Part shown: positions 39,001 to 54,000 of the stretch, piece after piece
Layout of the letters: each line of letters opens with the position of its first letter
Position numbering within the stretch: the stretch's first letter is position 1
NCBI GenBank assembly: GCA_019358915.1
Contig: JAHHIM010000003.1
Span: forward strand, 1 to 64,000
Origin: Trichormus sp. ATA11-4-KO1
Lineage (GTDB): Bacteria; Cyanobacteriota; Cyanobacteriia; Cyanobacteriales; Nostocaceae
Length of the DNA stretch: 64,000 nucleotides
Direction: 5' to 3'
Position numbers: made by a program

Positions 39001-42000
39001 CCTTCGATATTAACGGGTTTGACGGCCGCTTAGTGGCTGAAATCCTAGCACAAGAATACGGAATTGGGGTGCGAGCCGGGGCTTTCTGCACTTACGAATA
39101 CATTCGCAAACTCAAAAATATTTCGGACGAGCAAGACTGCGAAATTGCTCAAGAAGTAGAAAGAGGAATTACTCGTAACATTCCCAGCATTATCCGGGCT
39201 AGCTTTGCTGTTTACAACACACTAGAAGACTGTGAGAGATTCCTGAAGGCAATTTCGGAAATTTCTCAAAATGGAGTTGATCACTATTTCTCTGACTACA
39301 CACAAGATGAAATGACTGGTGTCTGGACTGTGATAAATAAGTAGAGCAGATAAAACTCTTTGTGTCTTAGTGGTTTAAGATTTTTACCACCAAGGCACAA
39401 AGACACCAAGTTTTTTCCAGTCAGCTAGGGGCATATTGAACAGGAGGTAATAGTTTGAGCGATGAAAACCTCTTTGGCCAGGAGGATTATTTACAGGCGC
39501 GAGTTGATGAGTACATCTGGCAACAAAGCACATCTGCGGGTATTTCTCGCCAGCGCTTTCTGCAAATCCTCGCGACTATGGCCGGGGCTGGGGCTATGGG
39601 GGGACTGGCTAGATCGGCACCTGCTCATGCTGAGACTGCTTCCAAAGCCAAGGGTAGTAAAATCATCAAACCATTGCTACCAGGCTACATCTCTCATAGT
39701 AAAGGCACACTAGAGATGAACTGGGAAGCAATGTATGGGCGTGGCTATTTAGTGCCAAACGATTGGTTCTATGTTCATAATCGCCATGCGCCTCCCACTT
39801 TTGATTTATCTACATGGCGTTTGCGAATTGAGGGAACTGGTGTTAATACCCCTTGCGAGTTTACATACGATGAAATCATCGCTATGCCCTCAATCTCGGT
39901 CACTAGTGCCATTGAGTGTGCTGCCAATGGTCGGCGTTTCTTTGAAGAAGCTTATAATAAACCTCTTTCTGGAACGCGGTGGAGGTTAGGCGCTATTGGT
40001 GTGGCTGAGTGGACTGGTGTACCACTTGGCTTATTGTTGGAGCGCGCTGGAGTGAAAGCCACAGCCAGAGATGTATTAGTTGAAGGGGCAGATTTAGACT
40101 CGCTGGACTCAAAAGGGACAAATCAGGCTAAATTCAGCAGTGTAGTTCCTATTGCCAAAGCCACAGCAGATCACTCTCTCCTCGTCTATGCAATGAATGG
40201 AGAAGCACTACCCCCAGATCATGGTCAGCCGTGTCGTGTAATATTTCCTGGTTGGTCAGGAAATGCCAACGTGAAATGGATTGAGCGCATTGAAGTTTCC
40301 GAAACCCCCATATATTCACAGTGGGTATTAGGCCAAATGGTGCTGACTGGCGCAGATTACCCAGCTAAGTCTCCGTATAGAGGTAAGTTAATTACTTACC
40401 AAAATGTCAAGAGTGCCTTTGAATTAGCTTGGCCAGCTACGCTTTCTGCGAGAAAATACCTGCTGCGTGGGCGTTCTTGGTCTGGAAAAGGAAAAATTGT
40501 CCGTGTGGAAGTCAGTTTGGATGGTGGCAGAACCTGGCAATTGGCAAGACTGAGAGAACCCAATTTTCCCTTTGCATGGGTGCGATGGGATATTGAATGG
40601 CATCCAGTTCCTGGAGAATATGCTCTCCAAGCTCGTGCTACTGACAATTTAGGTAACACACAACCGAATACGGTGCCGTGGAATGATTTTGGACTGCTTT
40701 ACGGAGGTGTTGTCAGTCATCCAGTAACAGTACAAGGTTAACCAGCCTAAATATCAAGTTTAACTAAGCCTTTTTTATGAATGATTTCGTTTGGTTGATT
40801 TTAATAGCTGGTGGGCTAATATCTGGCGTTATAGCGGGACTTTTAGGTATAGGTGGCGGCATTATCACAATTCCGCTTTTAGTTACCCTAGGTTATACAC
40901 CTGTGCAAGCGATCGCTACTAGTAGCCTGGCTATTGTGATTACTTCAATTTCTGGAAGTTTGCAGAATTTGTGGATGGGCTATTTTGATTTTAAGCGAGT
41001 GATTTATTTAGGAATTCCCGCTTTTTTAACTACTGGAGTCGGAGTCTATTTCGCCAACAAGATTCCCTCTTACATCATACTTTTTACATTTGGCATCATC
41101 TTACTGGCTAATGTCTATTTGATAGAGCTACGCAAGCAACTAATTTTAAAGCAAGCAGAGAATACAGCACCAGCATTTAATCCATTACTTTCTAAAATTG
41201 GTACTGGAGGAGCAGCCGGAATTTTAGCCGGCTTCTTTGGTTTGGGTGGCGGAACAATTATGGTTCCCCTACAAATGTTACTACTAGGAGAAGAAATTAA
41301 AGTAGCAATTCAGACTAGCTTAGGTGTGATTGTAATTACTGCTTTAGCTGCCTGTACAGGGCATACATTAGAGGGAAATATTTTGTTTGTTCAAGGTCTA
41401 GTTTTGGGATTTGGAGGTCTTTTAGGCGTTCAAATGAGTACTCGCACTTTGCCAAAATTACCCGATTCTGTTGTTAGTCTGGCACTGCGGATTTTTTTTG
41501 GATTACTATCAATTTATGTTTTTGGCGAAGCTTGGATAAATTATCAAGTCATAGCTGCAAAACCTTCAATAAATGAGAGTTTATCAGTTTTTTATTCCTT
41601 ATTTATAGGTTGAAATTTATCCGAATTTAAAAAATGATATTATAAATTGGCTTGTAGAGCCAAACCCGATTTTGTATCTATCGCTTGATTTTTGGAAATG
41701 GGGATAAAAAGTATAGGACTAACCCTTTAAAACTAGGTAAAAATATTCTTTTTAACCTCTTTACTCTGTGCCTCTGTGGTTAAATAAACTGCTTTTAAAC
41801 CACAGAGACAGCCGAGAAAAAAAGAGATTTTACGAGTCACCTTGAAAGGTTTAGTCTGGAAGTTTTAAAAAATTTTGCCAAAAAGATAAAGATATTGATA
41901 ATGGCAGTTTCACTAAATAAAAAAACATTAATTTCCGCATACAAATTTTTATTGTGGAGGTCTCACACAATTAGCTCCTCCAGGAGAATTTGCATCTGGA

Positions 42001-51000: not shown

Positions 51001-54000
51001 TAAAAAAATCTTCAGCTTTCCCAAAAAATTGTGCATGTGCAGGGGAGGCAAAGTAGTCTAGCCAAAATAAACAGAAGACGACAGATACTACCAAGATTTG
51101 TAATAGTATAAACCATCGCTTCGACAAATGCACCTGCTGACCAATTTGCTGGATGAGTATTGCTGTTAAACTACCAACCAGCAAACAAAAAAGCAGTATG
51201 GGACTTTTTAAACTAATAACGCTTAAAAATACAGCACAAGCAATCAAAAAGGGTAGCGATTCAACCACGCCAAGACGCCATGATGCTAAAGTCTGTCTCA
51301 ATATGTCAGATGTTCTCGCCGCACTAGTAGTTAAACCTTTGCCGAGTCTTCTTGCACTGGAATTTTTAGACATTTGCCAATTTCCCTATTATCTATAACA
51401 AATATCAGTCTGATTCATCCTTAAAAGTTTTACCATTTAACATGAGCTAAGATTCATTCTTAAGAAAGAAATTTATGTCGCCAAAATATAATATATGTTC
51501 ATCCTGCTTCAACCTATTAAGGATGTATTAATCAATTCTTAACATTTAGTTAAATACATAATTTCATCACATGCCACAGTCATTCCTGAGCTTTATCTAT
51601 AAGTTATTACACTGGCAAGCAGAGAGTTTACTTTCTATATAGTTGAGTCAATTGTGCGTTAGGCTTACCGCGATCGCATCATTTATCTTGTGTACGCTTA
51701 CAGTCTCAATTATTAACTGTGCTTAAACATCTTGTATGTATCCGTACTGCACTGCGAAGCATAACTGTTGAGCGAAGAATGGAGAAAATGTCTGTGAAAT
51801 TTGTTTGAGAATGAAAATTTGATAGTTGAGATTTATACGTAAAAATTAGTTAATTTTTATACTTTAATTGTTATTTGCGTGATACTATCCAGAATCAGGT
51901 TACTAGATAGGTAGCAAAATGTCTAGTGTAGAAAACCACAATTATCATTATCCGCAGTGAAGGTTCATAGAAATTAGGGATTAGCTGCCCAATTTTGGCA
52001 CTGATGAGATTTAGCAGCTTATTTGCTATGTATCTTAGAAGAAGTGGTAGACCGTCACACCTAGCCCTTTCAAGGTGGGTAAAAATTACCTAAAATTTTG
52101 TCCAATCTTAGTGCCTTTGTGGTTCAAATGTAGAGATGTTCCATAGAACGTCTCTACAAAGGTTCTGGAAGACACATCTTTAATTTCTGGAGATGTCTTC
52201 CGATTCAGCAACACTAAATTAAACTAACAAACCGAAAAAAATCATATTTTCACTTAAATTCAATTCAAGAGAAGAAGACATAAATACAGGAATTATGTCT
52301 AAAAATTCTCTCTTAAAGACTTGATTTTTTAAGGTTAGTCATAAAAAATAAAGATAACCTCTAACAAGTTGTAGTCCATCTTGTTAAGAACCTAACCTTA
52401 TCCAATTTTACAAGTCCGCCCCTGCGGACTTTATTTATTTGTAGTCAAACTTTATAGTTTACCGTATGGAGATCAATCCAAATATGACATAAGGAATTAT
52501 GTCTAAATATTTCATTTCATAGGCTTGATTTTTGCAATTTAATCGTAAAAAATAAAGATGCCATCTGACATAATTGTTGCCAATACAAGTAACAATTAAC
52601 CCTTATAGTGTGTGTCCGCTTTAGCGGACTTTATTTTTGCCATAATTTAGCCAATTTGGCTGGGAAATTCGGCGCGAAACTGATTGACAACACGATCTAG
52701 TCCCACGGAATGAGCGGCTTTGAACAATAAGCGATCGCCTGCTTGGACAAATGTTTTTAATCTCGCCAGCAAATCGGCATGAGTAGCAAAGCACTCCGAT
52801 GGAATCCCCTCGGCACTCTTGGCGATCGCTTCGGCATCTTGTCCATCCACTAAAACTAGCAAACCGTCTAATTGCAACTTTTGCACTGTTTCGCCCACTC
52901 TTTGGTGTAATTGCGGCGATCGCTCTCCCAATTCTTTCATTGCACCCAACACAGCAATTTTGCGCTTTCCGGGTGTATCTGCCAATAACTGCAAGGCAGC
53001 TACCATAGCTTCTGGTGCAGCATTATAAGTCTCATCTAAGATTAATACATCATTGGGCAAGGTGAACCGTTGCGATCGCCCCGTGGGCATATTCACCATG
53101 AAACCACTTTGTAAGTTTGACCAATCAATGCCCAAAACCTTAGCCACAGCTAAAGCCGCCAAGAAATTAGTGGCATTATGACGACCAGGCAGAGGTAAAG
53201 GTAGCTGCATTCCCTCAACTTCTATAGTTTCGTGATTGATCAGTGACCCTTGGATGTCGCCACCCGCAAGACCATAACTTAAAACTTTCCCCGACCAAAC
53301 TTGTTGCGCCGTAGCCATTAATAGGGGATTGTCATAATTGAGAATCGCCACACTATCTTGGGGCATTTCGGCTAATAACTCACATTTAGCCTGAGCGATC
53401 GCCGCTTCTGATCCCAGTAACTCAATATGCGCCGTTCCCACATTGGTAATTACCCCTATGGTCGGACGTGCTATTTGTGTGAGTTCGGCAATTTGTCCCT
53501 GACCCCGCATCGCCATTTCAATCACGGCGTAGTCATGTTCTGCATCCAGTTCTAACAAAGTTTTGGGAACACCGATTTCATTATTGAAATTCCCAAAAGT
53601 CTTGTGAACTTGTCCCTTGGTTGCCAAAACTGCGGCGATCAGTTCCTTAGTTGTAGTTTTACCTACAGAACCCGTGATCCCAATCACAGGAATATGCCAG
53701 CGATCGCGCCACCATCTGCCAATTTTTTGATATGCCTCTAAGGTGTTTCTCACCCGTAATCCAGGTAACCCTGGATTTTCGTAAGCATCATCGACAATTG
53801 CGGCAATAGCACCAGAGGCGATCGCTTTGGGGACAAATTCGTGTCCATCAAAATTTTCCCCTCGGAAAGCTAAGAAAACTTCACCCGGTTTGAGTATCCG
53901 AGTGTCTGTTTGGATAGCACTACCTACTTGTGCTAAAGCCGCCTCAGATAAATTTACAGGCTGTGCCGCAAGAACTTCTATTAATTGGGTGAGGGTGGCA

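Follow-up and report, generated by a model that had tools for sequence, protein, structure and literature searches.

A very probably domesticated MPF-C type IV secretion operon on the chromosome of Nostocaceae and its likely place in the phosphate response

Among the closest described relatives of the operon studied here is the MPF-C type IV secretion system (T4SS) of pCC7120alpha (alr7204-alr7213; PMC4027160, PMC8600333), a class in which a VirB3 homologue exists (PMC4027160). Descriptions of protein-secreting T4SS are confined to the classes MPF-T and MPF-I (10.1101/031039), and cyanobacterial T4SS without a relaxase have received no more than a passing mention (PMC3158045). A precedent for secretion without VirD4 is Ptl of Bordetella pertussis (PMC12857230). 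A literature search, covering mostly papers outside subscription, found no description of the operon presented below.

The window, i.e. the whole stretch of DNA that was analysed, comprises 64,000 nucleotides of contig JAHHIM010000003.1 (C3) of Trichormus sp. ATA11-4-KO1. On its minus strand, nine intact open frames were found again between positions 41949 and 51373, which confirms the nine-gene VirB-like operon reported in the genome-wide survey's note; it is an MPF-C type IV secretion operon. In the order of transcription, the genes are:

50759..51373, minus strand: 204 aa, alr7204 homologue, first gene; probable VirB2-like propilin, from its anatomy
50338..50715, minus strand: 125 aa, alr7205 homologue; VirB3-like by position and membrane segment
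47643..50390, minus strand: 915 aa, alr7206 homologue; VirB4 ATPase with Walker A and B intact
46830..47597, minus strand: 255 aa, alr7207 homologue; VirB5/TrbJ-like by position only
45746..46795, minus strand: 349 aa, alr7208 homologue; VirB6-like, five hydrophobic segments
44889..45710, minus strand: 273 aa, alr7209 homologue (copy 1); bitopic, VirB8-like
44169..44855, minus strand: 228 aa, second alr7209 homologue, without an internal loop of about 28 aa
42571..44136, minus strand: 521 aa, alr7210 homologue; VirB10/TrbI (Pfam PF03743, 41.5 bits, cut-off 35)
41949..42521, minus strand: 190 aa, alr7211 homologue; fold like the N-terminal domain of VirB9/TraK

With the system of pCC7120alpha, the operon shares the order alr7204-alr7211 and a VirB4 which is 53% identical to alr7206 across its full length. 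It differs in being chromosomal, in lacking alr7212, alr7213, MobV and integrase, and in possessing two alr7209 copies, a shorter alr7211 and a Pho-like operator. Of the eight families taken as specific to the MPF-C class (alr7204, alr7205 and alr7207-alr7212), seven were recovered in order by BLAST; alr7212 is absent.

The identities given previously for VirB4 and VirB10/TrbI hold. VirB4 matches TIGR02746 (E 4e-15) and TIGR00929 (E 1.9e-11), both far below the cut-offs, and its motifs are intact (Walker A ATTRAGKS, Walker B FFIDE); the TrbI score exceeds its cut-off. The 204-aa protein has a long leader, a conserved P-A-x-A-Q and a charged loop flanked by two hydrophobic helices. We take these to be VirB2 features, and together with the anatomy they make it a probable propilin; it gave no profile match and no structure match. 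Sequence searches of the PDB, made with VirB4 and with alignments of the pilin and of the VirB8-like proteins, returned nothing useful. The 255-aa protein is all-helical with a signal peptide, and its gene is among the fastest-evolving of the operon; fold searches with its model yielded generic helical bundles only. For the 273-aa protein, the ESM Atlas leads were VirB8 (0.88) and DotI/IcmL (0.84), both below the bar of 0.9. The duplication of this VirB8-like gene is a mark of the chromosomal clade. In VIA-align, the 190-aa protein superimposed on 6gyb_b with Z 10.5 (rmsd 2.8, 103 aligned residues) and on 7spb_C1 with Z 8.5, the next row having Z 5.7; it has neither the C-terminal tail seen in mobile copies nor a VirB9 C-terminal domain. 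Homologues of both outer-membrane core components, VirB9 and VirB10, are hence part of the operon. VirB7 was not recognised in the operon, and no VirB11 ATPase lies at the locus. Only three PF00437 ATPases score above the cut-off in the whole genome; from size and arrangement we read them as PilB and two PilT proteins, so that there would be neither a separate T2SS ATPase nor a VirB11 motor.

In a sample of 151 Nostocaceae genomes, a VirB4 match was found in 126 and a close copy, defined as at least 74% identical, in 108; outside the family, one genome with the operon was found. Laboratory strains also carry it, namely PCC 7120 (where VirB4 is probably all0469), A. variabilis, N. punctiforme and C. 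fritschii. The split between chromosomal and other copies was seen again: among the matches listed, identities drop from at least 74% to at most 64%. The survey's note had described the operon as usually single-copy and apart from plasmid copies. This is correct for most genomes; two close copies occur in seven of the 108, and one copy with 88% identity lies on a record titled as plasmid. Among the matches listed for 135 PLSDB records, one reaches 75.4% (the Gloeothece 880-kb linear replicon) and the others at most 60.8%. The 190-aa gene was undetected in eight family loci; the flanks are stable within genera. Purifying selection was found as stated: across 71 gene pairs taken from 8 loci, dN/dS ranged from 0.02 to 0.41 (VirB4: 0.04-0.10). 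In a FastTree phylogeny, in which the clade was read from the tree without a formal clade test, the chromosomal copies form one clade nested among mobile cyanobacterial plasmid and ICE MPF-C systems.

Related operons do exist on contigs C43, C57 and C66 of the same genome, and C43 carries its only TrwB/VirD4 match, as noted before; C3 has none. Likewise, the reported lack of a relaxase, coupling protein or integrase nearby extends to all close loci inspected (0 of 100), and neither coupling protein nor relaxase occurs on C3. Homologues of MobV, integrase, alr7212 and alr7213 were absent from 100 of 100 close loci, whereas mobile control loci gave alr7212 in 6/6 and alr7213 in 4/6 cases. An alr7203-like integrase was found in none of the 100, and Pfam scans of 194 neighbour proteins (singletons scanned partly) detected no integrase beside close copies. 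PF10412 has no match anywhere in 39 of the 108 genomes that carry the operon. What would mark a conjugative system or ICE, namely coupling protein, relaxase, integrase, element borders and a patchy mobile distribution, was not seen. The nested clade, the purifying selection, the loss of coupling protein and alr7212 and the 39 genomes without PF10412 agree with the earlier view that the machine is domesticated and non-conjugative, which we regard as very probable. The DNA export suggested there is unlikely, because a coupling protein is lacking.

The role had been left open in that note; the main clue to function, which it missed, is control by phosphate starvation. Upstream of the first gene are located:

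51517..51553, minus strand: Pho-box-like operator, four TTAA cores with exact 11-bp spacing
51485..51512, minus strand: candidate -35/-10 promoter, directly adjacent to the last core; by position only

The cores lie at 51517, 51528, 51539 and 51550, which is 144-180 nt upstream of the first start codon, and this perfect four-core array is the only one in the 5.97-Mb genome. At least 14 of 16 matches to the array were found in 46 of 75 orthologous promoters vs 0.8% of 1419 genome promoters; the enrichment is confined to period 11, and the array is weak in deeper-branching loci. The promoter, one of 29 consensus matches where 30.5 are expected by chance, is suggestive by position only. For this stretch, no RNA holder is on record. 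The cyanobacterial SphR Pho box consists of 8-bp boxes with 3-bp linkers and a TTAA core (PMC1906773). At least three 8-bp boxes, the 11-bp period and the core are shared, whereas here the boxes face both ways and their flanks fit the consensus poorly. A Pho box was predicted in 2007 for all0471-all0468 (rank 15 of 57) and Ava_2887-2884 (rank 10 of 54; PMC1906773 supplement), the same site being listed under 'hypothetical protein' in two Anabaena/Nostoc genomes (PMC1906773); an exact match to 19 nt of it lies before the operon in one relative's locus. With a de novo matrix derived from six of this genome's phosphate promoters, the operon site takes ranks 116-127 of 3043 if either strand is allowed and 589-1370 if the sense strand alone is scored; with a mixed-orientation matrix it ranks 71 of 1419. 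The genome carries PhoB/PhoR/PhoU-like genes, and from the array we infer SphR binding.

Nodularia and its relatives form blooms that are limited by phosphorus, and published RNA-seq data of the relative N. spumigena CCY9414, another strain than ours, allow the response of the operon orthologues to be followed. In this dataset, the -P/+P log2 values at day 7 were, in gene order, 2.35, 2.00, 1.70, 1.88, 1.92, 0.95, 1.52, 0.95 and 0.82 (6/9 significant); at day 14 they were 1.30-2.27 (9/9 significant). The changes of both flanking genes were not significant. Note that the induction is 2.5-5-fold vs 40-130-fold for phoX and phoD. No response was seen in N. spumigena UHCC 0039 on methylphosphonate (log2 -0.15 to 0.28, while pstS rose 2.2) or in +P cultures between day 7 and day 14, though pstS rose 3.3. 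A starvation study of PCC 7118, whose reads are public (PRJNA626624), states that hypothetical genes are not shown; the operon genes are missing from the supplement consulted. We consider it likely that the operon is part of the phosphate response.

At least 21 of the 108 genomes with the operon encode PhoX, PhoD or PhoA within 10 kb of VirB4; the phosphatase gene and the first gene of the operon often stand head to head. Using subfamily cut-offs placed at gaps in the scores once the data were known, and among kin that are not independent, classic PhoD occurs in 72/108 operon-bearing vs 1/43 operon-less genomes, long PhoX in 33/108 vs 0/43 and either Tat-type subfamily in 81/108 vs 1/43. Neither nested phosphatase is present in 27 of the 108, nor in the one operon genome outside the family; operon-less genomes outside the family comprise three with classic PhoD and about a dozen with long-PhoX-like proteins, and other Tat-type phosphatases occur in operon-less genomes. 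Several candidate partners were rejected: the 43 genomes without the operon include 31 with PhoA and 19 with NucA, and an 827-aa outer-membrane-type protein of this genome's phosphatase cluster is found in 30 of 151 genomes, 7 of them without operon. For a secreted-type NucA of this genome, the Pho-like site scores high. Beta-helix proteins adjoin some copies, though none in this genome; from their N-terminal barrel-like part, they are presumably self-exporting. The PhoD proteins Alr4976 and Alr2234 have been reported outside PCC 7120 cells (PMC4390845), and a Pseudomonas PhoD homologue leaves via Tat and T2SS (PMC4899797). The literature search revealed no described route for folded phosphatases across the outer membrane in these cyanobacteria.

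Most likely, the machine helps cells to get phosphorus, perhaps by exporting phosphate-releasing enzymes. On balance, we favor a domesticated phosphate-starvation transport system which either does the job of a T2SS (phosphatases out) or serves DNA feeding (DNA in). Our tentative choice is a Ptl-like two-step export of phosphatases in cells without T2SS. A conjugative MPF-C machine would have become fixed in the chromosome at an early stage of the heterocyst-forming lineage, would have lost VirD4, the gate for cytoplasmic substrates, as well as alr7212, duplicated VirB8 and come under the phosphate regulator SphR. Since there is no coupling protein, substrates should be taken from the periplasm, as the Ptl precedent suggests: folded phosphatases would first be moved there by Tat; a pilin piston powered by VirB4 would then force them out through the outer-membrane core of VirB9 and VirB10, allowing them to hydrolyse organic phosphorus outside the cell. 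Type IV pili or vesicles could be an alternative route for these enzymes.

Transport may also run inward. In a ComB-like import, extracellular DNA or another phosphate polymer would be pulled into the periplasm as food rather than as genes, and PhoD, PhoX and nucleases would release phosphate there for PstS. ComB is the closest match in parts (VirB2-4 and VirB6-10, without VirD4 and VirB11; PMC12857230). Import explains the phosphate control and the PhoD co-occurrence equally well, and the lack of comEC, comEA and dprA induction under -P speaks against transformation, not against feeding. We nevertheless rate it as unlikely: the Pho-like site of NucA suggests that DNA is cut outside, ComB has no VirB5, whereas the operon keeps a gene at this position, and the co-occurrence with PhoX, a monoesterase, fits less well. 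Somewhat less likely still is a Trw-like pilus without transport, by which starved filaments would anchor themselves to surfaces or mineral phosphate, bind to other filaments or partner microbes, or deliver proteins on contact. Trw provides a precedent, a probable pilin and a tip-like gene are kept, the pilin gene is the most induced one and the VirB5-position gene evolves fast, but pilin or tip paralogue arrays as found in Trw are lacking and the tie to particular phosphatase subfamilies is left unexplained.

The operon might instead serve the host in a way unrelated to phosphorus, such as in hormogonia or in remodelling of the envelope, and respond to phosphate only indirectly. This would fit the clear basal expression in +P, the missing response under mild stress and the parallel rise of a type IV pilin gene (log2 2.0 and 3.2) and, at day 14, of pilQ and hpsA. 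At day 7, however, hpsA, hpsB, hpsC and pilQ were not significantly changed while six operon genes were, and neither the phased operator nor phosphatase neighbours from several families would be explained; we judge this reading improbable. Least of all do we expect a channel that still transfers DNA, with coupling protein and relaxase supplied in trans from plasmids, or a decaying ICE remnant. The genome does possess VirD4 on C43 and several MobV genes, PF10412 occurs in 69 of the 108 operon-bearing genomes, and single-contig assemblies may omit plasmids. Yet the coupling protein does not track the operon (69/108 and 20/43, no nesting), being absent from the other 39 genomes and, with C43 proteins as query and no positive control, from five single-contig genomes; the loss of alr7212 and the purifying selection likewise speak against transfer.

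The functional analogue of phosphatase export is found in Pseudomonas aeruginosa, where PhoD (PA3910) is exported by Tat and T2SS and LapA by Hxc under phosphate starvation (PMC4899797); that machine is unrelated, and a separate T2SS ATPase is missing here. Helicobacter pylori ComB shares VirB2-4, 6, 8, 9 and 10-like parts, VirB4 as the sole ATPase, chromosomal location and conservation; the operon differs by its VirB5-position gene, the unrecognised VirB7, the phosphate link and competence genes that are not co-induced. Ptl shares the lack of a coupling protein but belongs to a different MPF class and has VirB11 without VirB5, whereas the operon has no VirB11 and possibly a VirB5; the substrates proposed for the operon would be nutrient-scavenging enzymes, none of them encoded within it. 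If true, a domesticated phosphate-starvation transport system of this kind would be a T4SS dedicated to acquiring nutrients, and the MPF-C class would have its first role outside conjugation.

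The nine minus-strand genes at 41949-51373, which the genome-wide survey's note had described as a VirB-like operon with VirB4 and VirB10, were confirmed as a real operon: compared by BLAST with the mobile MPF-C genes of pCC7120alpha, they correspond in order to alr7204, alr7205, alr7206 (VirB4), alr7207, alr7208, alr7209, alr7209 again, alr7210, and alr7211, and both profiles matched. Among the nine, profile support is firm for VirB4 and VirB10 only. The predicted model of the last gene product matches the VirB9 N-terminal fold (Z 10.5, rmsd 2.8, 103 residues), and the protein is, judged by this model, of that fold type. 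The names VirB2, 3, 5, 6, and 8 rest on position, membrane segments, the class description in the accessible part of PMC4027160, and a sub-threshold Atlas lead. The operon is flanked by a sulfite-oxidase/TauE group on one side and by murF on the other. With a HIP1 density of 0.42 per kb (four sites only) versus 0.82 genome-wide and a GC content of 39.7% versus about 41.8% for the contig, its DNA still looks slightly foreign in composition. Other features of the window are:

36022-36270: 82-aa peptide, no NCBIfam match
54256-55026, plus strand: 256-aa protein that has a signal peptide and a Pro/Thr-rich 17-aa repeat in nine copies, no family match
54507-54970: 51-bp tandem array encoding these repeats
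58095-59216: 373-aa protein, unclassified

We take the 82-aa peptide to resemble a cyanobacterial bacteriocin-type precursor.

A close copy, i.e. a VirB4 at least 74% identical to that of the window, occurs in 108 of 151 Nostocaceae genomes, the next-best copies reaching 64% at most. In a FastTree phylogeny of 62 proteins, the close VirB4s form one clade with a long stem within the plasmid and ICE copies (support value 0.90, no formal clade test). The mobile relatives possess a single alr7209 plus alr7212 (in one case fused to an M23 peptidase) and the coupling protein VirD4, whereas the chromosomal type contains alr7209 twice. Homologues of alr7212, VirD4, the relaxase MobV, and integrase were found in none of 100 close loci, and dN/dS values range from 0.02 to 0.41; both the lack of mobility genes nearby and the purifying selection claimed in the survey's note thus hold. 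Outside the family, one of 263 genomes (G328) has a close copy. As this copy and that of Gloeothece are rearranged and nested inside the clade, we conclude that the domesticated operon has on occasion been transferred.

Several loci deviate. In these two extra-family copies (L143 in G328; L141 on an 880-kb Gloeothece replicon), neither the 190-aa gene nor a strong operator was detected. A record with the title Nostoc sp. NIES-4103 plasmid1 (L043, AP018289.1) has a chromosomal-type operon (88%) with the flanking genes of the Amazonocrinis scaffold L042 and a different promoter region; it is possibly mislabelled or a captured piece of chromosome. In a contig of the diatom symbiont Richelia intracellularis (L069), stops split the operon into fragments. 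A second subclade (L145-L149, L151, L152), often an extra copy, adjoins PhoX or PhoA plus a large beta-helix protein; its VirB9-like gene was undetectable within the stretch fetched. Finally, three loci of family genomes (L153, L155, L156 in G056, G148, G031), each on a large contig, hold chromosomal MPF-C elements that include VirD4 and alr7212 and are probably ICEs, although an insertion splits VirD4 in two of the three; according to the part of PMC3158045 available, cyanobacterial ICEs had been found in Cyanothece only.

Although the operon's flanks vary between genera, phosphate genes recur: PhoX (three kinds), PhoD, PhoA, and a phosphodiesterase with a PHO4 transporter; 15 of 80 loci also have a gene of the PF12849 phosphate-binding family. 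PhoX, PhoD, or PhoA lies within 10 kb of VirB4 in at least 21 of the 108 operon-bearing genomes (21 of 22 candidates picked among the matches listed); in the source genome, such genes are located away from the operon. Of the 108 operon-bearing genomes, 81 encode classic PhoD and/or long PhoX, two enzyme types with twin-arginine leaders, versus 1 of the 43 operon-less genomes, with subfamily cut-offs placed post hoc at score gaps and genomes sharing ancestry. The association is further limited in that 27 operon-bearing genomes have neither enzyme and that both types occur in other cyanobacteria lacking the operon. Operon and phosphatases are jointly present and absent in genera g62, g65, g36, and g24, and with one exception in g5; of nine more family genomes from the phylum sample, four have operon plus phosphatase and five neither. 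Four control genes were not nested with operon presence. The source genome's phosphate cluster (L163, contig C1, 171890-185633) comprises two long PhoX, a cation-efflux transporter, and PhoA, and also encodes an Ala/Gly-rich protein of 140 aa that has a signal peptide, together with a protein of 827 aa that is unclassified; this pair recurs beside the operon in locus L038.

Upstream of the operon, roughly 170-195 nt ahead of the start, the 75 orthologous loci compared have in common TTAA cores that recur every 11 bp. The window has four perfect cores, the sole such array in the genome. At least 14 of 16 positions match in 46 of the 75 promoters, many from closely related loci, versus 0.8% of 1419 source-genome promoters and 0.9% of shuffles; at least 15 match in 24 promoters at period 11 and in 0, 2, 0, and 0 at periods 9, 10, 12, and 13. 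The fifth operon gene has the orthologues BAB72425.1 and ABA22494.1, whose accessions we take to convert to the numbering of all0471-all0468 and Ava_2887-2884. For these genes, all labelled 'hypothetical', the accessible supplement of PMC1906773 lists a predicted cyanobacterial Pho box (an 8-bp repeat with 3-bp linkers), and a 19-nt stretch of it is found unchanged upstream of the L118 operon; owing to this match and the fifth-gene orthologues, we equate them with the first four operon genes. Against reading the putative operator as a Pho box speak its modest rank (top 4-5%) with a matrix learned from six source-genome phosphate promoters that recovers the Pho consensus, the orientation of its boxes in both directions, and the weakness of the array in deeper-branching loci.

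Expression data are found in the available part of PMC9846622. Since NSP5570 is annotated there as TrbI/VirB10 and NSP5650 as murF, the nine orthologues are located between NSP5550 and NSP5640. Under phosphate starvation they were up by log2 2.35 to 0.82 at day 7, declining along the operon (six of nine significant), and by 1.30-2.27 at day 14 (nine of nine); the flanking genes did not rise. The paper counts 112 up-regulated genes at day 7, and the accessible text does not mention the cluster. As counter-evidence, the orthologues remained unchanged while phosphate-replete cultures ran down, as did the operon of strain UHCC 0039 (BMF81_00294-00302, matched by length and position) on methylphosphonate in the data seen from PMC5955973, so the operon has basal expression and answers solely to severe phosphate starvation. 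A type IV pilin gene rises too, and hormogonium genes lag.

The MPF-C class itself is already known; PMC3158045 mentioned cyanobacterial T4SS without a relaxase in 2011, and PMC8600333 treats, as far as accessible, plasmids only. No published description of the chromosomal operon or its phosphate control was found in searches of openly accessible papers and supplements.

As VirD4 is absent, no gate is known through which cytoplasmic substrates could enter this machine. T4SS already described that lack VirD4 serve periplasmic export (Ptl, Brucella), DNA import (ComB), or pili only (Trw), according to the part of PMC12857230 available. ComB-like import of DNA as a phosphorus source fits the parts list best and accounts for phosphate regulation too; we nevertheless regard it as unlikely. 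A Trw-like function as a pilus only seems rather improbable. An indirect phosphate link is improbable. Conjugation with partners supplied in trans is very improbable; in 39 of the 108 operon-bearing genomes no PF10412 match was found among eleven candidates scored per genome, in assemblies that may omit plasmids. Our tentative preference, held at less than even confidence, is that the operon exports phosphatases. It is favoured by the regulon, the neighbours, the nested occurrence of the enzymes, the detection of PhoD proteins outside PCC 7120 cells (PMC4390845, as far as accessible), the lack of a separate T2SS ATPase in the source genome, and the route in Pseudomonas, where the same enzymes exit via Tat plus T2SS (PMC4899797, in the part available).
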